A stretch of 40,673 bases of DNA, from the UHGV virus genome UHGV-1386588; one strand, given 5' to 3'. Shown here one piece after another: positions 2,236-25,944 of the stretch (position 1 is the stretch's first letter; each line of letters starts with the position of its first letter). The notes under the pieces are model-generated. The model ran no database searches, was not told the DNA's origin, and saw nothing but the letters and a program-made list of their open reading frames with translations. The DNA is from a virus. The translations under genes and the position numbers were made by a program.

Positions 2236-2862
2236 TTAATACCCTACTGCAATATAAAAAACTGATTCACCAGCGTCCTGAGAACCTACCCCCGGAACGC
2301 CAGACCAGGCTTTGTTAATGAATGCAAAACCGGTATTACTCAGATCAGATGCTCTGTACATCGGGCTGAACATCCAGTAGTTGGCTCCATATGTTTGTCC
2401 GAAAACAATGCCATAGCACTGATTTGTAAATGGCGTAGAAAATAATTTTCCACCAGTACCAGCGATAGTCCCGAATCGCATCTGGAACCCATTCGGGAAA
2501 TTAATTCCGCCTGCCGGTGAAGACCAGTAAGACATATCAGGTATCTGATTATCTCCTGTGCCCACATCCCTTTTCGCCGCTTCTCCTAAACCAAGGTTTG
2601 TGGTAATCGCTGTCGCCAGCTTTGCCACCAGTCCATCAACGTCACCATCATCGAGCGCGTCCAGTTCGGCGTTCGCGATAAACTGCCCCAGTACAGCCGC
2701 CATCGTCGACGGTTGGCGCAGCGCTTTACTGACCTGTGCGCTGGATGCTTTACCCGAGGAGAATCCTTTCTTCAGTGCGGTTAGCGTCTCCCATTCCTCC
2801 TGCGAGGTAACATTTGCATTAGCATCTGTCGCAAACGCTTTAAAATCATTAGTTCCAGCCAT
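2236..2862 (-). CDS. stf: side tail fibre protein (constant N-terminus outside, variable C-terminus inside the invertible segment)
   Basis: Start chosen at ATG 2860-2862 overlapping the upstream stop (TAATG); 208 aa; the crossover repeat at 2581-2606 lies inside the gene, splitting constant from variable part. Confidence 0.75.
   Translation of the reverse strand: MAGTNDFKAFATDANANVTSQEEWETLTALKKGFSSGKASSAQVSKALRQPSTMAAVLGQFIANAELDALDDGDVDGLVAKLATAITTNLGLGEAAKRDVGTGDNQIPDMSYWSSPAGGINFPNGFQMRFGTIAGTGGKLFSTPFTNQCYGIVFGQTYGANYWMFSPMYRASDLSNTGFAFINKAWSGVPGVGSQDAGESVFYIAVGY
2581..2606. repeat. invertase crossover site (left inverted repeat)
   Basis: TTCTCCTAAACCAAGGTTTGTGGTAA, close to hixL-like consensus (AAACC..GGTTT core); inverted partner of 784-809. 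Confidence 0.8.
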
Positions 2863-3542
2863 TAAAGTAATCTCCCCCATGCGCCGTCATCAAAACCGGC
2901 GATGTATTCGTTATCCATGTCAAATCCAAAGAATTTTGTTCCTTCGGACGGTGTTTCGACCGAGGGTGTTTCAACGCCGCCAGCCCATACACCAGCAGCT
3001 TTAACGGTGAGATAACCCTGTTTGATAGCGGCTATCAGTTCGAGTGACACATCAGAAATATCAGTCTCGGGAAAAACCCAGACCGATATCGTCATGTCCT
3101 GGTTATCGACGATCTGCATCTTCAGTCCAGAGCCTGCGGTAGCAGCGTCAAGGATGGGAGGCAGAGAGTCGTTCCGACCATCCCAGTTGTTGATAGCGAT
3201 TTTCGCTTTCAGAATGATGCGGTACGTCTCATCACTCAGCGTCGTATAGCCAGAATCAGGATCATATGGCCCTTGCCAGATGCCCTGGTCATATCCGAGC
3301 CCGTCAGTGTCCCAGCTGAAATAAACGCCGCTAATTGGCTGGCTGACTATACGACTACGCCCAATCCACAGGCCGAGGATATCGAGTTGCACGCCAACCG
3401 CCGTATCGATATCGAAGGCTGTTACAAGCCCTGACATAGTGCTGGACACATCAATCAGCGGGCGGGTGCTCAGATCTATATGGTCAAAAAAGAGTGGCTT
3501 GGTAGCGTGGTAGTTAGTGATCAGTTCGGTGTATTTGCTCAT
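2862..3542 (-). CDS. baseplate protein (Mu gp48 / P2 gpI-like)
   Basis: 226 aa, between the J-like gene and the fibre; ATG overlaps the upstream stop (ATGA). Family recalled from gene order and size, not searched. Confidence 0.6.
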   Translation of the reverse strand: MSKYTELITNYHATKPLFFDHIDLSTRPLIDVSSTMSGLVTAFDIDTAVGVQLDILGLWIGRSRIVSQPISGVYFSWDTDGLGYDQGIWQGPYDPDSGYTTLSDETYRIILKAKIAINNWDGRNDSLPPILDAATAGSGLKMQIVDNQDMTISVWVFPETDISDVSLELIAAIKQGYLTVKAAGVWAGGVETPSVETPSEGTKFFGFDMDNEYIAGFDDGAWGRLL

Positions 3543-4738
3543 GAGGTCACCGTGATAGTGACGTGACTCGCAACGCATGACGCAGATTCGTCATAAGCAA
3601 TATCGATATTTCCGCTTGCGACTGAGTCAGAGGATTTGCCGATGAGCAGCTCCTGAATGTCGTAATAGCGAGCACTGCCTCCGCTTACCACGCCAAGGTT
3701 TGCCGGGGAATAAATACGACTCAGCAGAACGTCGTCGCCAATTGTCAGGCCATTAATATAGCCGGCAACAGCCTGTTTGATCTGCTCGCCGATTTGAGAG
3801 GTATACCCGGTAAAAACTTTCAGGGTAATGGCTACGAAAATTGGCACATCGGTAGAGCGTGAAAAACTGATGACGTGAGGATTACCGTAAGTATCCGGCA
3901 CCGTGACAGAAGTTGTCCCGTAGGTTGCCGTTCCCTGTCCTTTATTCCCCCTGATGGTCTGGGCTATTTCGGTAACATCCCCACCATCGACGATGGCGGA
4001 AATTGAGTGCGGCGGCAGCCCGTTGCTGTCTGTTGTTCCTGTGTCGTTCTCATACAACTTGTGACGTGTCACGCCAGCAACGTTAGCTATTGCACCGTCG
4101 ACACCTTCAAACGGTGTGATCGATGGTAGCGCGACGCTTTGCCCCTGCCGAATGCGCAGCTCTGCGTCGGTTTCGGCTGGTGAACCGACAGTAGCCGAAG
4201 CTGGGTTGGTTACCGACACCCAGCCGCGAGTCGGTGTGTTAATGGTGGTAATAGTCCCGGCCATCGCCGCAACCGAACCGCTATTCGCACATGTGGCCGT
4301 CACCAGCACAGTACCATCAACGCCGATCGCTACACTTGCGGGAAAATTCCAGATAATGCCGTTTTTATCCCGTGCGGAGCCATTCGTGATAGTCGTGCCT
4401 GCCGTACCGGTTAACAGAAGGTCAGCAGTAGAGTTTGTCGCTACTTTTCGCGTGATCCCGTTAATTTTCACATTGCTGCTAAGCGCTGCGGCCTGCGCTG
4501 TCGTCGGTGAAAAAGAGTTGTAGATCCCGATAGCGGTGTTGTTAGCGTCATGCACCGCAAGAGCCACCAGCGCGACCATCTGCCCGTCTTTGCTGTCTGG
4601 TTCGAGGTAGGCATCACTACCGTAAATCTGCCTGAAATAGCTGGTCAGTGTATCTAGGATTGTCTGGTAATCAGGCGCACTAATCCCCTGGGCGGTTACC
4701 GTTGCCGATAGCCCCAGCGTGTCGAGGTTCAAAGCCAT
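3539..4738 (-). CDS. baseplate J-like protein (Mu gp47 family)
   Basis: 399 aa, Gly/Thr/Ala-rich structural protein in the conserved position after the gp46-like gene; ATG at 4738 directly after the upstream stop. Confidence 0.7.
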   Translation of the reverse strand: MALNLDTLGLSATVTAQGISAPDYQTILDTLTSYFRQIYGSDAYLEPDSKDGQMVALVALAVHDANNTAIGIYNSFSPTTAQAAALSSNVKINGITRKVATNSTADLLLTGTAGTTITNGSARDKNGIIWNFPASVAIGVDGTVLVTATCANSGSVAAMAGTITTINTPTRGWVSVTNPASATVGSPAETDAELRIRQGQSVALPSITPFEGVDGAIANVAGVTRHKLYENDTGTTDSNGLPPHSISAIVDGGDVTEIAQTIRGNKGQGTATYGTTSVTVPDTYGNPHVISFSRSTDVPIFVAITLKVFTGYTSQIGEQIKQAVAGYINGLTIGDDVLLSRIYSPANLGVVSGGSARYYDIQELLIGKSSDSVASGNIDIAYDESASCVASHVTITVTS

Positions 4739-5866: not shown

Positions 5867-6043
5867 TGGTATCAATTACTAAGCTACATCAGTGTGAAGT
5901 AAGGCTTTTCCGCTGCAATGGCACACATTCACAAGGTGTATTAGGATATGTTTGCAACAAGTAAGCATTAAAAATCAATTTCAGCCATGAAGCCGCCATA
6001 GAGTGGACCTGCACCATCGCATTCTTGACTACAGGAGTAACAA

Positions 6044-15766: not shown

Positions 15767-16708
15767 TCAGATACCGTCCACGTAGGACAGGGTTTCTTTG
15801 TACACTGGCTCAACCGCACCGAGCTTGCCGTAGTAGGTCGCAATCTGATACAGACCGCGATACTGGACAGGAACGCTCTGCAACGGCACCAGCGGATAGC
15901 GCACGTATTTCTTGTCGTTGGTGTAGGCGATCATACGGTCTTTACCGCCAACCCCACGCCCTTTCAGCCATTTGACCGCTTTGATTTCAAGCGGAACGCC
16001 GTTCTGGTGGAAAGCGATAGTGTTCACAGCCAGATAGGTCAGCAGTGACTGGTTACCCGCTTCGGAAACCTTACGGCTCGCCAGCAGTGAATACTGCTCT
16101 GGCGGAATGCGCAGATCAGAAGGCACGATGGAATAACCGGATGCTGCCCAGGCATTAGACAGAATGCTGTTCACGCTATCGAGGATCTCGTCGTTGGTTG
16201 AGTTCGCCCAGGTCTTCGGCGCGTTGTTCAGCGTCACACCGACGAGGTTTGCCAGACCTTTCAGGCCGAGTGCGTCATCACCGATGTAAACCTGCTCGTC
16301 GTTGTCCATCTGCCATTTGAGCTGCATCCCGTCGTACTTCTGGGTATCAATCGGGCGGCCTACCTGCTGAGCAGCTGCCAGCTCTACAACGGTCCAGCCC
16401 AGTTCCATACCCCAGAGGTTCAGTGGATTGCCGTCTTTGCTGATATCCACGTTCACGCCAGCAATAGCGGTGGAGTCTTTGCCTACCCAGTTTTTACCAT
16501 TCGGATTTGCACCAGTACCCGCAGCGGCGAAGCTGGTATTCGTCCAGCTGGAAATGTCATCTGCGATAGACACGTCTTCACGCAGTTGAATATCTCGGGT
16601 CCAGGTGTACCCCACCAGAGGCAGGTTCAGCGTCTGGTCGAGTCGCTCCAGCTCCCCGATGAGAAAGGCACCGGAGCTATCTACGGTTGCCTGATCAAAA
16701 GTAATCAT
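15767..16708 (-). CDS. major capsid protein
   Basis: 313 aa with AAGGAA RBS, the largest head ORF after the scaffold/protease gene and before the connector genes; followed by a GGCCCC-TTTC-GGGGCC hairpin (15742-15757). Confidence 0.7.
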   Translation of the reverse strand: MITFDQATVDSSGAFLIGELERLDQTLNLPLVGYTWTRDIQLREDVSIADDISSWTNTSFAAAGTGANPNGKNWVGKDSTAIAGVNVDISKDGNPLNLWGMELGWTVVELAAAQQVGRPIDTQKYDGMQLKWQMDNDEQVYIGDDALGLKGLANLVGVTLNNAPKTWANSTNDEILDSVNSILSNAWAASGYSIVPSDLRIPPEQYSLLASRKVSEAGNQSLLTYLAVNTIAFHQNGVPLEIKAVKWLKGRGVGGKDRMIAYTNDKKYVRYPLVPLQSVPVQYRGLYQIATYYGKLGAVEPVYKETLSYVDGI

Positions 16709-16719
16709 TTGTCTGTTCC

Positions 16720-17223
16720 TTAAATCTTCCAGGAGATTTCTGCATTACCGTTAGCGTCACCGGCACCTGTGAATTCGGCGTTGGTCAGCGCCACGTTTTT
16801 GCCACTGACGGACGTGGACATGAAGCCGCCCAGCGGCACTTTGATGGATTCATCAGTGGAGACGACAACGTATACCGGGTCGCCTTTTTTGATGGTGCTG
16901 GCATCAAAATCAGAACCGAGATTAACGGTCATGTAGCCACGCTTCATGGCGTCACCCGGGAAGTTCTTATCCGTCCCCACCTGGCGAACCATGTCTGGCT
17001 GCGATGTGGTCGGATACGGACGAACGTAGATCCCCTTCACCTTGTCGGCGGTGTCACCGTCCGCCAGCGGCACGAAAAAGCCGTCAGCGTCATATTTGCC
17101 AGCCAGACCATAGGCAGCGAAGGCGTTAGCGGATTTAAGGATCACCGGTTCGACGGTTAAGTCCTGCGGGCGAGAGATAGCCCCGGCAATGCCAACAGGC
17201 ATCCGGTACAGATATGCAGTCAT
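16720..17223 (-). CDS. head structural/decoration protein (putative)
   Basis: 167 aa with AAGGA RBS, immediately upstream of the major capsid gene. Confidence 0.5.
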   Translation of the reverse strand: MTAYLYRMPVGIAGAISRPQDLTVEPVILKSANAFAAYGLAGKYDADGFFVPLADGDTADKVKGIYVRPYPTTSQPDMVRQVGTDKNFPGDAMKRGYMTVNLGSDFDASTIKKGDPVYVVVSTDESIKVPLGGFMSTSVSGKNVALTNAEFTGAGDANGNAEISWKI

Positions 17224-17227
17224 TGGA

Positions 17228-18460
17228 TTATCCTTTGCGGTTAGACCAGAAGTCGGCGTTTTGTTTGTTCAGGGAAGCGATGCTGGTCATGCCCATATTT
17301 GGACGTTGTGCATCGCCCGTGGTGCTGCGGGTGTTTCGCCCTTTGGCAATCTCAGACACGGCGTTAAACGCCATATCGACCGATTGCTTGGGCAATTTGC
17401 GGATATCTGCATCACCGACAACCTGGCGAACCAGTGTTTTGTCAGCGGCGGACAGCACATCACGTTTGAACGCGGTCGGTTTCACCTTACGGCTCAGATC
17501 GATACCCGGAACGATAACTTCGGCACGATAAGCAGCGTCACCGGTAATCGTGGTTTCCTCTTCGTCGTCCTCACCGTCGCCGGTAGGGTCTTTGTTATCT
17601 TTGCCGTCAGGCTTATCGTCGTTATCGCCCGTTGCAGTACCTTCCAGCTTAGCCAGCAGGGCTTTGAGCAAGGTTTTGATATCGTCCTCGCCGTCGCCGG
17701 TTGGCTCTCCGCCCATTTCCGGCTTTTTGTCCGGCAATGGTTGCTGCGGTGAAAGGTTAATGTTGAGGTTAACGCCGCTCGGCAGATCCCCTTCGTCACC
17801 CGTTACCGCCGCTGGCGCAGAGTCCAGCAGTTCGTTCATGGTGTCAGCGTCACCCGTTTTGATGGCCGTGCGCATGCGGGTCCACCAGCTTTTCTTTTGA
17901 TTTGCCATTGTGTCTCTGTCTCCAATTGCACAACGATTTCCGGCTCTGCCTTTAGGGACAAGAGCCACATGGTTTCCGGTAATATCGACCTGCTCGGCTT
18001 TACCTGGCTCGGTCTGCTCGTACTCCGCGTCATAGCCGCACGACACTTCGCGCAGACCATCTTCGATAAGCTGAATGGCGCTTTCGTCTTTGACGATAAG
18101 GTCTGCCAGCATCAAATCAGACTGATCACCAGTCCCGCGCCGAACGTTCTGAAGATGCCCGACCGCAAGCTCTTTCCAGTTCTCGGGGTTGACCAGCCGC
18201 ACATTCCCGTTTTCATCTTCAGGATGCAGGATCGTGATGCTCATCCCTTCGAATGAGGCGAGCGTGGCCGGATGGAATACCTGATCAGGAGAGCGCGTTA
18301 CGACTATCTCGCCGAGCTTGTCGGGTTTGAGGTTTGGCAGATCGGCAGCGCCGTAAAGCTGCTTACCCGTTCGACCTATCGGCACGTCTTTGCACAGCAG
18401 CGAGCCGTCAGCCAGCTGATAACGGGTTTCCCCCAGCCGGGTATTGAAAAAATATTTCAT
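17228..18460 (-). CDS. putative prohead protease / scaffolding protein
   Basis: 410 aa between the Mu F-like gene and the capsid genes; globular N-terminal domain followed by a long acidic, Gly/Asp/Glu/Lys-rich low-complexity linker typical of scaffolds. Confidence 0.55.
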   Translation of the reverse strand: MKYFFNTRLGETRYQLADGSLLCKDVPIGRTGKQLYGAADLPNLKPDKLGEIVVTRSPDQVFHPATLASFEGMSITILHPEDENGNVRLVNPENWKELAVGHLQNVRRGTGDQSDLMLADLIVKDESAIQLIEDGLREVSCGYDAEYEQTEPGKAEQVDITGNHVALVPKGRAGNRCAIGDRDTMANQKKSWWTRMRTAIKTGDADTMNELLDSAPAAVTGDEGDLPSGVNLNINLSPQQPLPDKKPEMGGEPTGDGEDDIKTLLKALLAKLEGTATGDNDDKPDGKDNKDPTGDGEDDEEETTITGDAAYRAEVIVPGIDLSRKVKPTAFKRDVLSAADKTLVRQVVGDADIRKLPKQSVDMAFNAVSEIAKGRNTRSTTGDAQRPNMGMTSIASLNKQNADFWSNRKG

Positions 18461-18474
18461 GGTTTACCTGCGAT

Positions 18475-19248
18475 TCAGGCGAGATAAGAATGAGGGTTGG
18501 GGAAGACGATTTCTTTGTAACAGCGGCAGTTCGGGAGCTCGCCAGCGTGACCGGTCATGCCGTCAAGCGTTGGAGGTCGGCCCCATTCGACAAACTTCCC
18601 TTCCATCTCTCGATGAGAATGCCGGACGTCGCCATCTTCGGCTGTACGCCAGATATAACCATTCGAGCCGATTGACAGCGCACGCGCCTGATCCAATGCA
18701 CCGGTTGCGCGCCCAAGCTCAGTCCGGGAGATAAGGTTCGCTCGTGAGCGTGACACGTCACCGGAAGCAGCTATCTCTTTCGCGAATGGCTCAGCGCGGC
18801 CACCAGTTACTACAGCCTCGATGGCCTTGTTCTGAATGTCATACACCCGATCGGCGGCCTCAAGAGGCAGAGATTTGATGTACTTAATTTGCTCGGCGAC
18901 GATGGATTTCATCACCTGGCCTACCGGGGCGCGGTCGACCATGTTGCGTAGTTCTGCGCTGATGTTCCGACTGTGCTGACGCCACTGCTTTTCATTCTGG
19001 CGCGCAATGTCGGCGGTGAAGCTCTCAGCAACCTTAGTCGCCCAGGGGGTGATGATTTCGCTGTAGCGCTCCAGCGCATCCATTATTTCGGTGACGCTAT
19101 CGTTTGAACCATCGTAGCGACCATTTACGATATCCCCGACTGCCCGCGCTATCTGCCGTAGGCTCGTTCGATATCGGATCTCCGCCTGGCGGCTCTGGCG
19201 GTTTGTCGCCAAGTTCGCCGATGCCTGGCGGCGCTTCGTCTTCGGCAT
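18475..19248 (-). CDS. head morphogenesis protein (Mu F-like / SPP1 gp7 family)
   Basis: C-terminal motif HAGELPNCRCY is characteristic of Mu F-like minor head proteins; the ATG at 19248 overlaps the portal 3' end by about 150 nt, so the true start is uncertain (next Met at 19083). Confidence 0.6.
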   Translation of the reverse strand: MPKTKRRQASANLATNRQSRQAEIRYRTSLRQIARAVGDIVNGRYDGSNDSVTEIMDALERYSEIITPWATKVAESFTADIARQNEKQWRQHSRNISAELRNMVDRAPVGQVMKSIVAEQIKYIKSLPLEAADRVYDIQNKAIEAVVTGGRAEPFAKEIAASGDVSRSRANLISRTELGRATGALDQARALSIGSNGYIWRTAEDGDVRHSHREMEGKFVEWGRPPTLDGMTGHAGELPNCRCYKEIVFPNPHSYLA

Positions 19249-20566
19249 TCTCTATGTCCTCGTCGGTAATGGATGCCCCGATGCCGGTGACGTCAGAGTT
19301 TTCGCGCAGGTCGGTCATCGCCGCCTTACGCGTCATCAATCCGTCGCCCAGCGCGGTACTGATCGCGTTGGTGGTGTTTACGGCCACCGTTGATCGGTCA
19401 ACGTCTGACATTTGCCATAGCGGGTTAAACTCAAACGTGAAATCGTCCGGCAGCGGCTTTCCGAGTTCCGAGCGGTGCATAATGTCCAGTATCCGGCGCA
19501 TCGGCAGCCGTAAGCGGCGCTCCTGCAATGAGCTCACCCGGTCGTAATAGTTGGCGAGGTCTGCATCACCAGTAGAGAAGCCTTTCGGGGATTGACCGAA
19601 CAGGCGTACCAGCGGGATACCAACGGCACCGCTGATCTGCTCAGCAAACTGCGAAAGAATGTCATCCAGACCACTAAAGCTGTACTGGTGGGTTTCGAAC
19701 TTATCCCGCGAGTCCATGAGCGTCATACCTTCATTGCTCTGGAACTGGCGGATCAGGTCGATGTTCTTCAGCAACGCTTCGAACGCCGGGCCTCCAAGCG
19801 CGATAAGCTCGCGCAACTTCTCCACGCTATAGGTACGCAGATGCGCTTTATATACCAGCTGCGCCGCGCCGACAGTAGCGCTATCGAACGCAGTAAGCCG
19901 ATCCCAGATACGCTCTACAACCGACATTCCCCATTCGTTTTCGGTCATCTTCTGCTGGAATGGCAGCGTGACGCCATCAAAGCGGATCAGGCGGCTGTGA
20001 TGGATGCGCCAGGCCGGAATGCCCGTTGCGGTGGTCACCACGTCGTAAAACTCAGGCTTGCCGAGGTCCGGCCCCATCTCTTTAATGCGGCGTGTCAGCA
20101 CCGGGTTAATCATCCAGCGGTCGAGCGGGAGAATGCCCTTAAACTTGCCCTCGCCAATGGTTTCGAGTCGCAGCGGGGTCATTGGTGCTTGCCCCTCGAT
20201 CATGATGAAGCCGACCGCGCCGCCGTAGAGGCGCGACCATTTCAGCACGTCGTTCAGCGCATCCCAGATCTGCAACTCATCCAGTTGCGCTTCGAGGGTG
20301 CCACGGTCTTTGGCGTCAATCTCCGAAGTGATGCGAATGCCCTTTCGGGTCATATCGTCCGGGATAGCGTCGACCGCTTCACCGATAACCCACGAACCGC
20401 GATATGACCATTCCACCAGCATGCGGTTGCGGCTGGTGAAGTTCGCCCGGTAGGTCGATGCAGAGTGCTGATTAGGCGTCTGCATCCCCACGCGGGCGAC
20501 AAAGTTCTCATAGCCATCAGCGGTGGCCTGCGCCGTTCGCTGAGAGGCTTGCTTGTTTCGTGCCAT
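19097..20566 (-). CDS. portal protein
   Basis: 489 aa directly after the large terminase; start set at the ATG overlapping the terminase stop (TGATG at 20564-20568). Confidence 0.75.
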   Translation of the reverse strand: MARNKQASQRTAQATADGYENFVARVGMQTPNQHSASTYRANFTSRNRMLVEWSYRGSWVIGEAVDAIPDDMTRKGIRITSEIDAKDRGTLEAQLDELQIWDALNDVLKWSRLYGGAVGFIMIEGQAPMTPLRLETIGEGKFKGILPLDRWMINPVLTRRIKEMGPDLGKPEFYDVVTTATGIPAWRIHHSRLIRFDGVTLPFQQKMTENEWGMSVVERIWDRLTAFDSATVGAAQLVYKAHLRTYSVEKLRELIALGGPAFEALLKNIDLIRQFQSNEGMTLMDSRDKFETHQYSFSGLDDILSQFAEQISGAVGIPLVRLFGQSPKGFSTGDADLANYYDRVSSLQERRLRLPMRRILDIMHRSELGKPLPDDFTFEFNPLWQMSDVDRSTVAVNTTNAISTALGDGLMTRKAAMTDLRENSDVTGIGASITDEDIENAEDEAPPGIGELGDKPPEPPGGDPISNEPTADSAGSRGYRKWSLRWFKR

Positions 20567-22008
20567 CAGGCTTGCCTCCCGAGCAATTCCCAAATATCCA
20601 TTGTTGTATCGGTCGGCGCGAACGCCATTATGAAAGCGTCGGCAATGTTAGGTGAGGGGATATCGCGCTTAGCCAAATCTTTCTTGCTTTCAACCATAAC
20701 CCTACCGTTACGATCAAAGTCTCGGTGCGGGGTCGTCAGCTCAAGCTTTAGTTTCTCCAGGTGCGGGCACGATGAATCGATACTTATCAACTCATCAACA
20801 GGATATTCCTCTCCATTTTTCACCGCGTTGAACGTATTACGAAAGCGATCAGCTACCAGCCACCATGCCTGGGCTTTCAGATTGGCAAAGAAGTCTTTAT
20901 TCGGAATGCCGTTATATTCAGAATCTGGCTCGTTCACACCAGCGCCAGCATTGAAGCGTTGATAATTAACTGGTCGTGAATAAGGATTTTCACGTCGTCT
21001 GTCTTCGTTAATTTCCGAGAATTTAGCACCAGCAGAAGCGCCAACACCAATGGAGTCATAAACGATATCAGCACTTCTCTCTGTGGCTGCCTGATATGCC
21101 CGCTGGCAGCTTTTAAGAAGCTCGTCTTCTTTTGCCTTCCATTCATCAGCCCAATACACAACGGAGCCATGACGATAAACATTGGAGCACTTATCCGCAC
21201 CGCTATCGGCAACGTCGAAGCCTATTCGCTTTCGTCCGTTTGGCTCAAAACCAAGCACCTTATGGGCATCTATTGCAGCCTCAATCCACGAAAGTTTAAT
21301 AATTGCCGCGTCATCATCAGATTCGGGAACCCCCATATAAACGTGGTCAAACCCCTCCGGATCACGACGCTTTGCAGCCGAGATAACCTTAAGCATGGTG
21401 TCTGAGAGGAATGGGTTTTCGTCGTAATTGATTTTTCTCACCAACGTATCTTCTGGTGGATCAACAACGAAATTACGCCATACAAAGTCAGTCACCAGAC
21501 CAGGGTTAAAAATAAACCAGCATTCAGATCCGCTTTTACGAATGGTTGGTTCCAGTATCTTCCACTGGTATTCCGTTAGTGCATGGGCTTCTTCAAGCCA
21601 CAAAACGCTGATACCTTCCAGGGATTTAATTTCTTCGATATTGCGCCATAAACCGTAAAACACGAATTCTGAGCCAGTGACCCGGTTGATAATTTTATTA
21701 TTCAGAATTCGGAAGCGATGCCGCAGCCCAAACCGTTCAATCTGTATTTTGAGCAGGGTATAAACCGACTCTTCGATTTTGTTCTGAATTTGACGTGCGC
21801 AACAGAAACGCAGGTTGTATTTATTTGCCAGAAAGACAGCAAACCCAGCAGCATCCCATGACTTTGACGATGAGCGCCCACCAAAAAGTACTTTATTTCG
21901 AGCCTGTGTCGTCCAGAAGTTCCTTAGAGCCGGATTCAGGGTCGGTTTGGATGTCAGAGTAGAAGTCATTAAGGTCACGATCTCCATTACCGTCATCAAC
22001 GCCAGCAT
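20566..22008 (-). CDS. terminase large subunit
   Basis: Walker A-like LFGGRSSSKS near the N-terminus; acidic nuclease-domain motifs; about 480 aa; several in-frame ATG/GTG starts within 22011-21967 so the start is +/- 15 codons. Confidence 0.85.
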   Translation of the reverse strand: MLALMTVMEIVTLMTSTLTSKPTLNPALRNFWTTQARNKVLFGGRSSSKSWDAAGFAVFLANKYNLRFCCARQIQNKIEESVYTLLKIQIERFGLRHRFRILNNKIINRVTGSEFVFYGLWRNIEEIKSLEGISVLWLEEAHALTEYQWKILEPTIRKSGSECWFIFNPGLVTDFVWRNFVVDPPEDTLVRKINYDENPFLSDTMLKVISAAKRRDPEGFDHVYMGVPESDDDAAIIKLSWIEAAIDAHKVLGFEPNGRKRIGFDVADSGADKCSNVYRHGSVVYWADEWKAKEDELLKSCQRAYQAATERSADIVYDSIGVGASAGAKFSEINEDRRRENPYSRPVNYQRFNAGAGVNEPDSEYNGIPNKDFFANLKAQAWWLVADRFRNTFNAVKNGEEYPVDELISIDSSCPHLEKLKLELTTPHRDFDRNGRVMVESKKDLAKRDIPSPNIADAFIMAFAPTDTTMDIWELLGRQA

Positions 22009-22675
22009 CACGACGAAGGCGATCCGCTTCCAGAGACACTTTGTCAGTGGAGGCGAGCCGATGCTCTATAGATGCCTTTGTGAATTCCAGCGACTCAATG
22101 CGGGCCGTGTTACGGTGCATGGCTTTTTGCGCAGATGAAATTAGCTCGTGAAGATTATTGGCGGTATCGCCATCAGCTATTTCAAGCTCAGTCTGCCAGC
22201 GGCCAATATTTTCAGCAGCGGTAAGGTTCGCCGCACGCAACCAGAAAAGCTCATCGTCGAGCGTGAGCAGCTTCGCATCTTCGGTGATTGCATCAGAGAG
22301 CAGCATCCTGCGACCGTAGCCGCCGTGCTTAAGGGCATTCTGGTTGCCAGGCTGGAAAGGAGGGTGGTTGGTGACTACGTTCCTGCGCACACGTTCGGGT
22401 TTCGTATCTGGAGGATTCGCAGCATTGGAGGATTCGCAATCACCATCAGATGGCTTGCTACCTCTGGCCTTATCGCCTTTTTTTGCCTGCGAATTCGCAG
22501 TTTTATTCGCACTTTTCTTTTGCGAATTCGCACTACCATTCGCAATTTTGATATAGCGCTTTGCAGTCGAGTAATTCAGTCCCTGCGCTTCGCACCATTC
22601 TTTGGGGGAAATGCCGGTTTTGGCATGTTCGGACAGGAACCGTTGCTGAAGCTCGCCCCAGTCCGGCTTTGCCAT
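21893..22675 (-). CDS. terminase small subunit
   Basis: 260 aa upstream of and overlapping terminase large subunit; N-terminal HTH-like segment (GISPKEWCEAQGLNYSTAKRYIK); low-complexity SANSQKK repeats; GGAGTG RBS. Confidence 0.7.
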   Translation of the reverse strand: MAKPDWGELQQRFLSEHAKTGISPKEWCEAQGLNYSTAKRYIKIANGSANSQKKSANKTANSQAKKGDKARGSKPSDGDCESSNAANPPDTKPERVRRNVVTNHPPFQPGNQNALKHGGYGRRMLLSDAITEDAKLLTLDDELFWLRAANLTAAENIGRWQTELEIADGDTANNLHELISSAQKAMHRNTARIESLEFTKASIEHRLASTDKVSLEADRLRRDAGVDDGNGDRDLNDFYSDIQTDPESGSKELLDDTGSK

Positions 22676-22687
22676 TGGTCACTCCAT

Positions 22688-22867
22688 TCAAACGAGTTCA
22701 GTCTCGATGGATACTTTCTTCATGAGAGCGTTGGTAAGCTCATCAAGAATGTATGCCTGTAGTTGCGGGGTAAGGCGTCGTCCGGCTAGTGCCGTTTTGA
22801 GCCTTTCAAACTCATCGAGCATATCCTGCTCGGTCGGTAAGCCAACAACGGTTACTTTCAGTTCCAT
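22688..22867 (-). CDS. small hypothetical protein upstream of terminase
   Basis: Start chosen at ATG 22865-22867 with GGGAGAAGAG RBS (MELKVTVVGLP..., 59 aa); the longer ORF-track version overlaps the upstream gene. Confidence 0.45.
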   Translation of the reverse strand: MELKVTVVGLPTEQDMLDEFERLKTALAGRRLTPQLQAYILDELTNALMKKVSIETELV

Positions 22868-22985
22868 AGTCTCTTCTCCCATCCCCTGCAGGGGATATTT
22901 GATATTTATCTGCTCAAGGGGATACCCATTATCAAGCCCACCCGTAGATGAGCTTTGTAATGGAAAGCCGTTGTGAAAGTGGCTC

Positions 22986-23366
22986 TCAGTGTGCAGGTAG
23001 TTCCCCATCAGCAACTTTCTGGGCGTAGTAATCAAGGATGTCTTCGATGACCGCTATTCCTGACGGTTTGAGCCCCTCATACTTCCCTATTGATGCGAAA
23101 TACGAAGGGCGCTCAGGATTGTAGATATCGAGCATCCGAAAGAACTTCATCTCCACTGCGTCAGCATCCATATTGTCGGCCATAAAATATGACGTGAACA
23201 TCGACGCCAGGCAGTCAGCATCTATCAGAATGTCGCCAAATTCAGAACGGTATATGGGTTGCCGGTGTTTCGCAGTTTGCATGATGACGAACTCCTCACA
23301 GACCTGCCTGGCCATGGGGAATTTTTCTGGTGAGTATGGATTCACGGCCACCTCACGCAGCAGCAT
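22986..23366 (-). CDS. hypothetical protein
   Basis: 126 aa, ATG at 23366 overlapping the KilA-N gene stop by 14 nt; no recognisable motif. Confidence 0.5.
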   Translation of the reverse strand: MLLREVAVNPYSPEKFPMARQVCEEFVIMQTAKHRQPIYRSEFGDILIDADCLASMFTSYFMADNMDADAVEMKFFRMLDIYNPERPSYFASIGKYEGLKPSGIAVIEDILDYYAQKVADGELPAH

Positions 23367-24081
23367 AGAGCAATTTCATCTGCCCTTTTACCGGGAATGC
23401 CGACATGCAGCGCGCTTCGAAATCACGATAATCAGAGCACCCATTGGCAATGCTGGTAACGGCAATGATCTGTCGCTCAACCAATGTCAGCGCGTCAGGT
23501 TTAAGGTGCTGATGGATTTTATCTCCCGCAGCCAGGCGTCTTTTAACCTCTGCATACACTTCTGGTGGTAATACCGGGCCATATACCCACTTTGCGCTGA
23601 TCATCCCAAAAAGTGCGGGGCGACGACCTGGCCTATGACGAGGCAGTCCTGACATTTTGAACATTGCAGAATAAAACGGATCGCTAAACCTCTTTTCCCA
23701 TGGCTGAGATTTATCCAGAAGGAAAATAGCCTTTATTCTTTCATCGTCGATATGATGAACGGAACCCTGAATGATTGCGTCAATTTGCTCATCACACCAG
23801 ATCTCAAAATCTACAGAAAGCCATCGAGCAAATCTGACCGCCAGTTTTGGGTGAAGCCATGTTCCGCCGCCACGGTCTTTGCGAGCGCGGCTGGTTTTTA
23901 CATATGTGATATTCCCATATCTACTCTTTAGCGCCTCGATGTAACGAACAGTCTCAGGAAGCCTAAGCCACTGAGCTGGCTCCTTGTTGAACTTGTCAGC
24001 CGCCGCAGTCGCGTCAAACCAGCCATCGTCAGAAAAACGCATTGGATGGCCTTCGAAATCAATCGGGATGATATTAGACAT
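23353..24081 (-). CDS. KilA-N domain protein with C-terminal P63C-like domain (anti-repressor-like)
   Basis: Start at ATG 24079-24081 (MSNIIPIDFEGHPMRF...); N-terminal region resembles the KilA-N (APSES-like) DNA-binding domain; sits between lysis cassette and terminase. Confidence 0.65.
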   Translation of the reverse strand: MSNIIPIDFEGHPMRFSDDGWFDATAAADKFNKEPAQWLRLPETVRYIEALKSRYGNITYVKTSRARKDRGGGTWLHPKLAVRFARWLSVDFEIWCDEQIDAIIQGSVHHIDDERIKAIFLLDKSQPWEKRFSDPFYSAMFKMSGLPRHRPGRRPALFGMISAKWVYGPVLPPEVYAEVKRRLAAGDKIHQHLKPDALTLVERQIIAVTSIANGCSDYRDFEARCMSAFPVKGQMKLLYAAA

Positions 24082-24220
24082 CGTATTTACCTTTTTGGTG
24101 ATATGAGCCAGTTCTCGCAGACATGGACAGCCCAAGAGCGGCACGATGTAAGCCACCGTCCTGTCTCTGTCTCATACCCCGAAAAGCTCTTGGTTGATAT
24201 GCGCACGAGAATGCGCGGGT

Positions 24221-24247
24221 TTACTGCAGGCGTAAAAAAGCCCCGCT
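24221..24247 (-). terminator. rho-independent terminator at the end of the lysis cassette
   Basis: Minus-strand RNA hairpin GCCUCGC-AAUA-GCGGGGC (one G-U pair) followed by UUUUUU; overlaps the Rz1 stop codon. Confidence 0.65.
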
Positions 24248-24509
24248 ATTGCGAGGCTCTTGATGATTCGATTTTCCTGATTGCTGCCTTATCCAGATTG
24301 CACTGCCCCAGCGCCGTGTAGAGCTGAGCGTTTAACTCCAGACTTGCCTGCCACGTGAACGGAACCTCCATTCCGGGGATCGGTGTGTCTGCAGTAAGGT
24401 CAGCGCTTATCAGTACCACGGGCGCCGGCACGTAAACCGTCCGCGTATTCCCGCAAGCTGTCAGCAGCGGCAGCAGGAACAAGCTGCTTAGCACACTGAT
24501 CCCCTTCAA
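24246..24509 (-). CDS. Rz1: o-spanin (Rz1-like outer-membrane lipoprotein)
   Basis: Out-of-frame ORF overlapping the 3' half of Rz and extending past its stop; lipoprotein signal [16 protein letters not shown]; start tentatively the TTG at 24507-24509 (MKGISVL...), with in-frame GTGs at 24540 and 24531 as alternatives. Confidence 0.6.
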
Positions 24510-24777
24510 GCGCCTGCCTGATGTAGATAACACGCTGCTCACCTGCCTGGGAAAGTTCGGTCTTTGCATTCTGGGTTACCCGGGAAATGTCATTGATGAG
24601 GTTCATTGCGGTGACTACGCTATTGCTAACGGTCTCGGCGGTTTCCGCCCTGGCCGTTGCTTTATCACGCTGCTCTTTGAAGGTGATAGCGTTGTCGTGG
24701 TAGTGGCTAGCCAGCCATCCGAGGCTAACTATCAGGCAGATCACTACGGCGCTGATAATAGCGGTTAACCGGTTCAT
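24400..24777 (-). CDS. Rz: i-spanin (Rz-like)
   Basis: 125 aa with N-terminal TM helix ([19 protein letters not shown]) and coiled-coil periplasmic part; ATG overlaps the endolysin stop (ATGA); S-R-Rz order. Confidence 0.8.
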
Positions 24778-25256
24778 GGTTGTACTTCGGCTACAACGCC
24801 GCCAGCGGCTTTGAATTTTGCGATCAGGTTGTCTGCCTTATGCTCAAACTGGCCATAGCCTGCCCCGGGCAATGACGCCCAGATATTGCTGCAACGATCG
24901 ATAGCTTGCCGAATCTGCCCGTTATCGATGAGCGGAAGCGCGCCACGTTCTTTGATTTGCTGCAGTGCCACCTGGTCCTGTGAGGCTGGAGAGAAGTCTT
25001 TCAGTCCAAGCTGTTTCCGGTACGCATCCCACCATTTTGAAAGCAACTGGTAACGCCCAGCCGCGGTAGATTTGATGCCCAACTTGGGGAGGTTGACCAG
25101 TTTTCGTGGGTGGTCGCTGTAGTCAGAGAAAAGCGATCCGCCGACAATGACATCATAACCCCTGTTTTTGGTGTTCTGCCTTGGCTTGTCAGTACCCTCT
25201 GACCAGGCGAGCATATCCAGAAATGCCCTGCGCTGCTTATTGAGTTCCAGCATCAT
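24774..25256 (-). CDS. R: endolysin, lambda R-type lytic transglycosylase
   Basis: Near-identical to lambda R as I recall it ([16 protein letters not shown]...GYDVIVGG...[12 protein letters not shown]...[24 protein letters not shown]...[21 protein letters not shown]). Confidence 0.93.
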
Positions 25257-25560
25257 CAACCCCTGCTTTTCTGGCGGCGAACTTCTTAATCAGGTTGCCG
25301 ATCGAGTCTGTACCGATGTAGCCAATGAAGACACTGGCGATATACGCGAGATTGCTGCTCAGGCCAATGAAGTCGAGAAGGTCACGGACGAACCAGGCGA
25401 TCATCGCGCACATGACCGCATCGATCAGCGTCTTCGCCATAGCGCCACCGTTATAGCGACCCCGCAAATACGCCATGATGAAAGCCAGTATTGCGCCGAT
25501 ACCCTGCTCCTTAGCTGCCAGCAGAGCGGCGATGAAATCTTGTTTGTAGGGCATTCGCAT
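25237..25560 (-). CDS. S: holin, lambda S family (class I) with dual-start motif
   Basis: [30 protein letters not shown]...[11 protein letters not shown]...[12 protein letters not shown] closely matches lambda S; two in-frame ATGs (MRM) at 25560 and 25554 mirror lambda S107/S105. Confidence 0.92.
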
Positions 25561-25664
25561 AAGCCTCACCTCCGTTAATGACGGATGGCGCTGTGTGTGT
25601 TTGTAGGGGAAAGGCCGTCAGACTCTGATTGCTACATGGCATCTGAAAATGATATCTGCGGCCT

Positions 25665-25693
25665 GCAATAAAAAAGCCCACGGCGCGGTGGGC
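25665..25693 (-). terminator. rho-independent terminator in the Q-S intergenic region (S-proximal)
   Basis: Perfect stem GCCCAC / GTGGGC (loop of 6) followed on the minus strand by TTTTTTATT. Confidence 0.7.
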
Positions 25694-25944
25694 AATAGAG
25701 GGTAGTGCGTTGAGCTTTTGCTCTTATGGTCCTGGTAGGTATTTGGTGTGTGGTGACCGGTGCTGTGTTTTCCGGCATGTAAATGAACTACCCGTCGTCG
25801 CCATGGTGAGCCTTTACCTCACCATCTAGCTGATAAGTTAGCGCATCAGCCTGCGCATTCACCACAACGATAATTGCACTGCGCCTGTTTCGGTTAGCGT
25901 AACGGGATTAACCGGTCACCCCAATGCAATTATCTGTTGTGCAG

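Follow-up and report, generated by a model that had tools for sequence, protein, structure and literature searches.

A probable leader-controlled KilA-N-P63C cassette and a separately moving 59-residue-protein module between the lysis and terminase genes of a lambdoid phage genome

Between the lysis and terminase genes of the UHGV virus genome UHGV-1386588 lie three genes, encoding proteins of 242, 119 and 59 amino acids (aa), the first of which is preceded by a structured RNA leader. We analysed the whole stretch of 40,673 nucleotides (nt), hereafter the window; coordinates are positions in this window, and all genes considered here are on its minus strand. The region probably consists of two independent accessory modules of a mosaic lambdoid phage, the first being a late-operon cassette that carries a regulator throttled by its leader. 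Module 1 (24259-22986) comprises a terminator, a leader of ~150 nt, a gene for a protein with KilA-N and P63C domains (the KilA-N-P63C or KilA gene) and a partner gene of 119 aa. Module 2 (22985-22688) comprises a 118-nt spacer and the 59-aa gene. The three genes are ordinary phage accessory genes, and the main one is already known. As for the 150-nt leader, we see about an even chance that it represents an undescribed and widespread family of cis-regulatory RNAs of genes in the 'Bro network', operating as a two-state switch or kinetic trap in which a pairing termed P1 competes with a long helix termed Ha.

In an alignment of the 240-nt stretches preceding the KilA-N-P63C genes of every context, the terminator and the next ~150 nt accompany the gene, including in copies located within tail-gene clusters. 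Single-sequence folds of 28 divergent leaders have a common architecture in most cases, with a hairpin H2, a long rod (Ha plus P3) ending at the Shine-Dalgarno (SD) sequence, a bulge of 6-7 nt on the 3' side and an apical hairpin P2. The structure was derived by voting among per-sequence minimum-free-energy (MFE) folds combined with a covariance model, R1. These replaced RNAalifold on a plain MAFFT alignment, which recovered 8 pairs only, owing to misalignment. The elements of the leader in the window are as follows.

24231-24079, minus strand, structured 5' leader RNA of the KilA gene (R1 score 111.7 bits, E 1e-24)
24216-24201, minus strand, hairpin H2
24193-24186, minus strand, P1a (CCAAGAGC), 8 nt just 5' of the long helix
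24186-24167, minus strand, 5' strand of the long helix Ha
24166-24158, minus strand, 5' strand of P3
24157-24145, minus strand, hairpin P2 in the apical region
24139-24132, minus strand, P1b (GCUCUUGG) in the apical region
24128-24119, minus strand, 3' strand of P3
24118-24112, minus strand, bulge GCGAGAA on the 3' side
24111-24091, minus strand, 3' strand of Ha, in which AAAAG (24095-24091) overlaps the SD sequence AAGG (24093-24090)
24081-24079, minus strand, ATG start codon of the KilA gene, at the end of the leader

A search of 600 kb of related loci with R1 found 50 copies, all on the sense strand, and the 48 that are not truncated all end at a start codon. In an alignment of leaders (A4), 88.9% of cells are paired; shuffling the columns gives 75.4%, and sliding the partners 29-47%. 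None of 500 shuffles reaches the observed value, and compensatory changes occur in 28 of 33 pairs. Viral contigs provided an independent set that was not used in building R1: a degenerate DNA pattern gave at least 120 loci, and R1 confirmed 109 leaders among the matches listed. The corresponding alignment (A8) has 87.0% of cells paired against 78.2% in shuffles and 33-48% with slid partners, compensatory changes in 23 of 33 pairs, and again no shuffle among 500 that reaches the observed value. At the base of Ha, CUUUU pairs with the AAAAG of the SD region, and here too both strands have changed together (e.g. CG:19/UA:16 and AU:18/GC:16). By its predicted structure the leader is an SD-sequestering cis-element, the SD being paired in a covarying, conserved helix. 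Overall, leaders occur in at least 162 places in the sequences examined, with 152 distinct full-length copies among the matches listed, and all 159 non-truncated matches lie on the sense strand and end at a start codon.

Scans against Rfam 15 gave no hit on the leader, either in the window (E <= 1) or in six divergent loci (E <= 0.1), and rule out its identity with the c4 or sar antisense RNAs. We found no description of a KilA or Rha leader in the literature searched, coverage of which was incomplete; an earlier description is possible. The HK97-type leader also contains an upstream open reading frame (ORF) of 34 codons (ATG at 24175, TAA at 24076-24074 in the kilA start region), which we consider incidental because its ATG is missing in other subtypes (e.g. 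L027) and because the conservation pattern is that of helices.

A second pairing, P1, links P1a to P1b. P1a and P1b are complementary in 46 of 46 distinct leaders (12 sequence variants) in one set and in 77 of 78 (18 variants) in the other, and in each set none of 2000 permutations reaches the observed excess of own over cross-sequence pairing. The test used per-sequence complementarity with cross-sequence permutation, since the loop region is out of register in the model alignment and its columns were unusable. P1 crosses Ha: P1a abuts the base of the ~30-bp helix and P1b sits at its tip, so on steric grounds the two pairings would be mutually exclusive. The helix joining the anti-SD to the SD is present in the full-length MFE structure of 110 of 123 leaders and P1 in none of the 123, whereas P1 is in the MFE structure of 81 of 123 when the RNA is cut just after P1b. 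For the leader in the window, the calculated energies are -38.7 kcal/mol for the consensus rod, -29.8 kcal/mol for the P1 state and -39.9 kcal/mol for the MFE, which is an HK97-specific alternative.

The leader is not confined to KilA genes. Counted as distinct proteins among the 109 viral-contig leaders listed, the genes behind it encode Rha with ORF11CD3 (at least 39), KilA-N (at least 25) or Rha (at least 4) proteins, HNH_3/AP2 endonucleases (at least 7), T5orf172/MUG113 (at least 3), ANT (at least 2) and Bro-N (at least 1) proteins. This gene set corresponds to the domain-shuffling 'Bro network' (PMC10111431). The HNH_3/AP2 endonuclease genes stand directly after the leader in at least 7 distinct viral-contig loci (e.g. 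L177), and in locus L052 (1795-2501) an HNH gene lies between the leader and a KilA-N-P63C gene. These arrangements look like insertions of homing endonucleases that exploit the leader.

R1 also matches upstream of rha in two model phages, with 74.7 bits in P22 and 123.5 bits in phi80; the phi80 copy starts 3 nt after an annotated terminator.

Locus L225 (P22, NC_002371), 2993-3147, leader upstream of rha
Locus L226 (phi80, NC_021190), 43634-43777, leader upstream of rha

The start codons annotated for rha, at 39575 in P22 and 43739 in phi80, fall within the conserved leader. According to the leader model the rha ATG is further downstream, by 69 nt in P22 and by 36 nt in phi80, and the shortened Rha proteins (178 aa in P22, 172 aa in phi80) retain the complete pRha domain. 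The annotated start codons of both genes are corrected by these predicted starts. A weaker leader copy (60 bits) is found at 45226-45354 of the phi80 locus, directly upstream of gp49. The gp49 protein (242 aa, similar to N15 gp59) was considered as a KilA-N-P63C homologue and rejected by comparison; it has no clear Pfam domain, so the leader serves more than the genes with recognised Bro-network domains. P22 rha, which belongs to the late operon, is detrimental to lytic growth without IHF, and Rha expression is reportedly IHF-dependent (PMC4936722). The phi80 record carries the note 'DNA synthesis inhibition in IHF- hosts'.

The gene behind the leader in the window encodes a protein in which, as the preliminary description of this DNA had proposed, Pfam profile searches find both KilA-N and P63C above the curated cut-offs.

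24081 (ATG) to 23353 (stop), minus strand, KilA-N-P63C gene, 242 aa, with KilA-N at residues ~8-105 and P63C at residues ~117-192

KilA-N (PF04383) scores 79.9 bits against a cut-off of 23.8 and covers profile positions 4-106 of 107; P63C (PF10546) scores 42.6 bits against 26.1. Over its full length the protein matches phrog_1136 (408.8 bits, 1.7e-122). The KilA-N domain has the APSES-like alpha/beta DNA-binding fold, and the P63C domain is helical and is elsewhere fused to Rha, in Pseudomonas phage YMC11/02/R656. Both domains resemble DNA-binding modules. No ANT/KilAC (PF03374), P22_AR or AntA domain was found in the protein by the Pfam search at E <= 0.1, which returned KilA-N and P63C only. 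The 242-aa protein is predicted to be a two-domain DNA-binding protein of the Bro network.

HK022 and HK446 encode exactly this protein (100% identity) and HK97 gp73 differs from it slightly (99.2% identity); the HK97 and HK022 orthologues occupy the same slot after Rz. The gene is therefore a known, uncharacterised one, and we found no experimental study of a KilA-N-P63C protein or of HK97 gp73 in the literature searched. Across the stretch bounded by the terminator and the KilA stop codon, the DNA is 96-97% identical to that of HK97, HK022, HK446, mEpX1/X2 and mEp234/235/506, and identity to the HK97-type phages ends exactly at the stop codon, marking a recombination joint. Its homologues in Gamma- and Betaproteobacteria number more than 1,100 clusters.

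The terminator in front of the leader is the first element of the mobile cassette, as judged from sequence and RNA folding, and overlaps the Rz1 stop codon (24248-24246).

24259-24234, minus strand, intrinsic terminator: stem GAGCCUCGC, loop AAUA, GCGGGGCUU, then U6; the stem has 9 bp

The preliminary description was right that a terminator precedes the genes and had placed it at 24221-24247, which is not its location. An automated terminator scan of the window did not list it. The mEpX1, mEp235, HK75 and phi80 records carry the annotation 'terminator' at the corresponding site, the stem sequence varies between cassettes with compensatory changes, and among the listed copies a terminator-like hairpin with a T-run stands upstream of 113 of 130 distinct leaders. 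The space thought to be available for a promoter of the cassette's own is otherwise occupied: a consensus scan of 22500-24500 found no sigma-70-like site, against 2.0 expected by chance, and 139 nt are taken up by the conserved RNA structure. No sense-strand terminator with a U-tract was found after the three genes. A moron would have its own promoter and a downstream terminator; here the terminator is upstream and no promoter was found. The upstream terminator and the SD-sequestering leader together argue for late-operon read-through under translational control rather than for a moron expressed in the lysogen.

These features suggest the following mechanism. Standing behind a terminator and lacking an apparent promoter, the cassette would be transcribed only by terminator-resistant (Q-modified) late transcription. 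Its translation would be throttled, the favoured leader fold (Ha plus P3) pairing the SD region with the upstream anti-SD. On the nascent RNA, P1 would form first and probably delay the closure of Ha, which could leave a short window for ribosome loading, as in delayed-folding or switch-type control. The KilA-N-P63C protein would then probably act late in infection as a dose-sensitive DNA-binding regulator or interference factor; dose sensitivity is suggested because rha, in the same slot and behind the same leader, harms phage growth without IHF. A late-expressed, translationally throttled DNA-binding regulator, not a part of the virion or of the packaging machinery, is the most likely reading.

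Several points weigh against this interpretation. Timing, translational control and the biological role of the gene and its leader are inferred from sequence throughout, and a weak, non-consensus promoter could escape the consensus scan. The alignments used for pair counting were fitted to the model, which inflates the percentage of paired cells, and the pattern behind the viral set fixed some columns; compensatory substitutions are nevertheless plain in the raw leader sequences. In the window itself, the MFE structure of the HK97-type leader is a non-consensus fold 1.2 kcal/mol below the consensus rod. The kinetic-trap proposal derives from steric reasoning and nearest-neighbour folding, and P1 is in the nascent MFE structure of 66% of leaders only; P1 could instead be a true pseudoknot or a switch controlled by a protein or ligand. 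Finally, most leader-led operons have no partner gene (29 of 136 have one), and the pairing of regulator and partner may not be functionally obligatory.

In the window, the partner follows the KilA gene after a 7-nt spacer, and the SD sequence of its GTG start, GAGGTGG, overlaps the KilA stop codon.

23345 (GTG) to 22986, minus strand, 119-aa partner gene (126 aa if ATG 23366 is used)

The 119-aa gene is probably translationally coupled to the KilA gene. It matches phrog_24826 (2e-54), and its family is very rare: a search of 5.8 billion proteins gave 10 homologue clusters, and one of 1.8 billion gave 14 representatives. Nine of the 10 clusters are 119 aa long and start with MNPYSPEKF, which corresponds to GTG 23345. 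The family is an orphan with a conserved HR(R/Q)P(V/I)YR..GDI motif. Scans with Pfam, NCBIfam and PADLOC models and single-sequence and profile searches of PDB gave noise and no match, and an AlphaFold2 (AF2) model (pLDDT 57) is unusable. Wherever upstream DNA is retained in the contexts examined, the 119-aa gene lies directly 3' of a KilA-N-P63C gene, or of an IS66-split remnant of one, at a distance of 7 nt or overlapping it. A different small gene, of 77-86 aa, takes its place behind the KilA-N-P63C gene in HK97, mEpX1 and several Klebsiella phages. Among the listed copies, a partner of the 119-aa type is directly downstream in 17 of 136 distinct leader-led operons and one of the HK97p61 type in 12 of 136. 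Homology between the 119-aa protein and HK97p61 was raised by a marginal BLASTP alignment in the same register (residues 35-59) and refuted by hhalign profile-profile comparison, which gave a probability of 0.1%.

The KilA gene and its 119-aa partner adjoin at least five terminase architectures. The pair is followed by Terminase_2 with Terminase_6, by HNH with Terminase_4 and TerL, by DUF2280, or by unassigned terminases. Cassettes with a KilA-N-P63C gene and a 77-86-aa partner occur inside tail-gene clusters, in SPN3UB and its relatives (Salmonella) and in the phages ST11-VIM1phi8.1 and 2 LV-2017 (Klebsiella), and also in the partial record of Klebsiella phage KP12. In SPN3UB and the Klebsiella phages the cassette adjoins the Arc/Ant immunity region. 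Within that region of ST11-VIM1phi8.1 (L022), beside the KilA-N-P63C cassette, a segment (5928-5992, minus strand) matches the P22 sar antisense RNA below the gathering score (37.6 bits against 43). In two Enterobacter prophages IS66 splits the KilA-N-P63C gene: in the Enterobacter cloacae prophages L004 and L006 (~2250-4560), IS66 (TnpA/TnpB/DDE transposase) lies within the gene and the 119-aa gene has been left behind. In L004 there is, in addition, a reverse transcriptase of a group II intron a short way upstream.

The diversity of terminase neighbours, the tail-cluster copies and the IS66 disruption together indicate that the KilA and 119-aa genes are not packaging functions, in agreement with the preliminary description. 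That description had also recognised the lysis-terminase junction as a recurrent site for cargo genes, which the rha/orf80/orf59c genes of P22, rha of phi80 and gp73 of HK97 bear out, and had proposed a comparison of this junction in related phages, in which universal conservation with the terminase was not seen.

The three genes do not form one block, as had been supposed. The 59-aa gene moves separately, together with its own spacer, and elsewhere follows Rha or KilA-N-ORF11CD3 genes.

22985-22868, minus strand, conserved non-coding spacer of 118 nt that moves with the 59-aa gene
22867-22688, minus strand, 59-aa gene starting MELKVTVVGLPTEQDML, with its stop 12 nt upstream of the small-terminase ATG at 22675
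22675-21893, minus strand, small terminase (TerS), phrog_370
Downstream of the phrog_370 small subunit, minus strand, large terminase, PBSX-family-like

The 59-aa gene has six homologue clusters with 75-100% identity in several genomic contexts, and this conservation indicates a real gene rather than a chance ORF. No family or PDB match was found for its product in scans with Pfam, NCBIfam, PHROG and PADLOC models or in single-sequence and profile searches of PDB. P22 Orf59c, which is also 59 aa long and encoded just upstream of gene 3, was considered as a homologue and does not align to it. A longer form of the gene was likewise rejected: although in the window and in L018 the frame stays open further upstream, L015 has an in-frame TAA directly before the start. 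This TAA, together with upstream indels in L015 and L016, supports a length of 59-61 aa.

Genes preceding the 59-aa gene encode KilA-N-P63C, KilA-N-ORF11CD3 or Rha proteins. Downstream, it is found next to small terminases of 172, 235/240, 238 and 260 aa, which represent four TerS families, and its stop codon is 12 nt before the small-terminase start in 7 of the 8 contexts that show downstream DNA. In one case, the lambda-like GpA phage contig L016, the gene is not adjacent to a terminase and lies ~2.4 kb from a lambda-type terminase. The 59-aa gene is probably co-translated with the small terminase, and the linkage is not specific to one TerS family. Nucleotide homology of Module 2 begins right after the preceding stop codon, covers the 118-nt spacer and runs up to the terminase gene or a short way into it. 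It reaches the first 20-180 nt of TerS in some contexts and stops at the TerS start in L013 and L016.

The spacer contains a hairpin (22955-22934) followed by GATAATGG, and this hairpin has compensatory changes in L013; the RNA fold z-score of the spacer is -2.7. Two direct TATCCCCT repeats are 30 nt apart, and a perfect 16-bp palindrome, ATCCCCTGCAGGGGAT (22896-22881), is located just 5' of the SD sequence and is absent in L015 and L016. The spacer (22868-22985) could be a protein binding site or an RNA element, both being possible. In TerS itself, the N-terminal ~70 residues (22675-22460, helix-turn-helix (HTH)-like) match five PHROG families and the remainder matches phrog_370 only, and the nucleotide sequence ceases to resemble that of other phages 20-180 nt after the start of the gene. 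Both observations point to a recombination joint within TerS, between the DNA-recognition domain and the rest of the protein.

The gene order along the minus strand is holin, lysozyme, Rz with embedded Rz1 (LysC PF23793), the three genes, small terminase, large terminase and portal, and the three ORFs between Rz/Rz1 and the small terminase are present where the preliminary description had put them. The window is a mosaic over the part compared (16000-40673). Citrobacter phage Omnitron has 96% identity to part of 16000-25747, Salmonella phage SEN34 and E. coli vB_EcoM phages have 87-89% identity to the portal and head genes (16000-20596), and phi80 and Enterobacter phage CobraSix are similar to the early region. 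For the terminase, identity is just 78-80%, to Klebsiella prophages.

The closest relatives of Module 1 are HK97 gp73 and the corresponding genes of HK022, HK446 and the mEp phages, which are alike in protein (99-100%), in their slot after Rz/Rz1, in the terminator and in the leader (96.7% nt identity). The HK97-type phages differ in what follows, namely an unrelated 77-85-aa partner (HK97p61 family) and then an HNH endonuclease and a cos-type terminase, whereas the window has the 119-aa partner followed by the phrog_370 small subunit and the PBSX-family-like large subunit. The rha genes of P22 and phi80 have in common with the KilA gene the slot after the lysis cassette, the terminator-plus-leader arrangement and membership of the Bro network. 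They differ in domains, with an N-terminal pRha instead of KilA-N and a C-terminal ORF11CD3 or none instead of P63C. KilA of phage P1 and the eukaryotic APSES factors (Mbp1, Bqt4) have only the N-terminal domain in common with the window protein.

Translational control by delayed folding or alternative structures operates in the MS2 maturation gene, in hok mRNA and in lambda cIII mRNA. The leader resembles these in having its SD in a long-range helix at equilibrium and a competing, covarying pairing that is transcribed earlier, in both respects as predicted from sequence alone, and it has no sequence relationship to them. P22 sar and P1/P7 c4 are alike in exerting RNA-level translational control, here predicted, over a Bro-network gene in temperate phages. 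They differ in being small RNAs that act in trans or as antisense and that have Rfam models, whereas the leader matches neither and appears to act in cis.

Other explanations for the region assign the protein a different role. It could be a classical anti-repressor, a role that the preliminary description had named as frequent among KilA-N proteins: late in infection it would inactivate a CI-type repressor, either that of the phage itself or that of a co-resident prophage, with irreversible lytic commitment or cross-induction as the outcome. The leader also precedes ANT/KilAC and Bro-N genes, which are typical of anti-repressors, database records call P22 Rha an 'anti-repressor', and the SPN3UB and Klebsiella cassettes are situated beside Arc/Ant. 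The 242-aa protein, however, has no ANT, P22_AR or AntA domain, both of its domains resemble DNA-binding modules instead, and no experimental KilA-N plus P63C anti-repressor was found in the literature searched; we regard this role as unlikely. A BstA-type prophage defence, in which a KilA-N protein made from its own promoter in the lysogen senses the replication of an incoming phage and aborts the infection, with the partner or a DNA element giving self-immunity, would suit a cassette that is mobile and accessory. In a PADLOC scan, residues 66-95 (23884-23795) match the candidate defence protein PDC-S22 weakly and partially (E 9.5e-5, 30 residues only), a match that probably reflects the common KilA-N core motif GGGTWLHPKLA. 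No significant defence model covers the 242-aa protein and neither small protein matches any; BstA was not matched either, the presence of a BstA model in that library being unconfirmed. The C-terminal domain is P63C and not that of BstA, and the window's late operon is a different genomic position from that of BstA. The lack of a promoter and the terminator and SD-sequestering leader in a late operon are the opposite of what a constitutive sentinel needs, and these signals point to late lytic rather than lysogen expression. Defence of this kind thus seems quite improbable here.

A role in packaging, with one or more genes aiding the terminase, as the HNH protein gp74 does in HK97, or carrying a pac site, is suggested chiefly for Module 2, where the 59-aa gene ends 12 nt before TerS in 7 of the 8 contexts and the homology in some contexts runs into the part of TerS that encodes the conserved N-terminal HTH domain. 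Tail-cluster copies and unrelated terminases exclude such a role for the KilA and 119-aa genes. For the 59-aa gene, the four TerS families, the homology that often stops at the TerS start and the distant terminase in L016 speak against it, and a packaging accessory is accordingly quite unlikely. Alternatively, the region upstream of KilA and Rha genes might act as DNA, as a promoter, an operator or a site bound by IHF. The reported IHF dependence of Rha expression (PMC4936722) and an ATCAA-like motif after hairpin H2 in many leaders would fit a DNA site. Yet both strands of the helix change while staying complementary, including through G-U pairs that exist only in RNA (GC:43 versus GU:38 at one pair), the 159 non-truncated matches are all on the sense strand and stop at the start codon, the SD itself forms the 3' strand of the main helix, and the window has neither a full IHF consensus (by direct reading) nor a promoter. 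We consider a DNA site very improbable. A late-expressed DNA-binding regulator behind an SD-sequestering leader remains the reading we prefer.

The genes themselves add little to what is known. Their apparent block splits into two separately moving modules with exact recombination joints, and the KilA-N-P63C gene is not a packaging function. The leader is a covarying RNA common to regulator genes of the model phages P22, phi80, HK97 and HK022, yet it is not in Rfam. If it controls translation as predicted, this would explain how dose-sensitive and potentially self-harmful proteins are kept silent until late in infection. The leader would then be the constant part of a cassette that receives shuffled DNA-binding genes and homing endonucleases. 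It may also account at the molecular level for a phenotype known for decades, the harm that rha of phi80 and P22 does in IHF-deficient hosts, and, if the predicted control holds, compensatory mutants of the leader would provide a concrete handle on the Rha/IHF puzzle.

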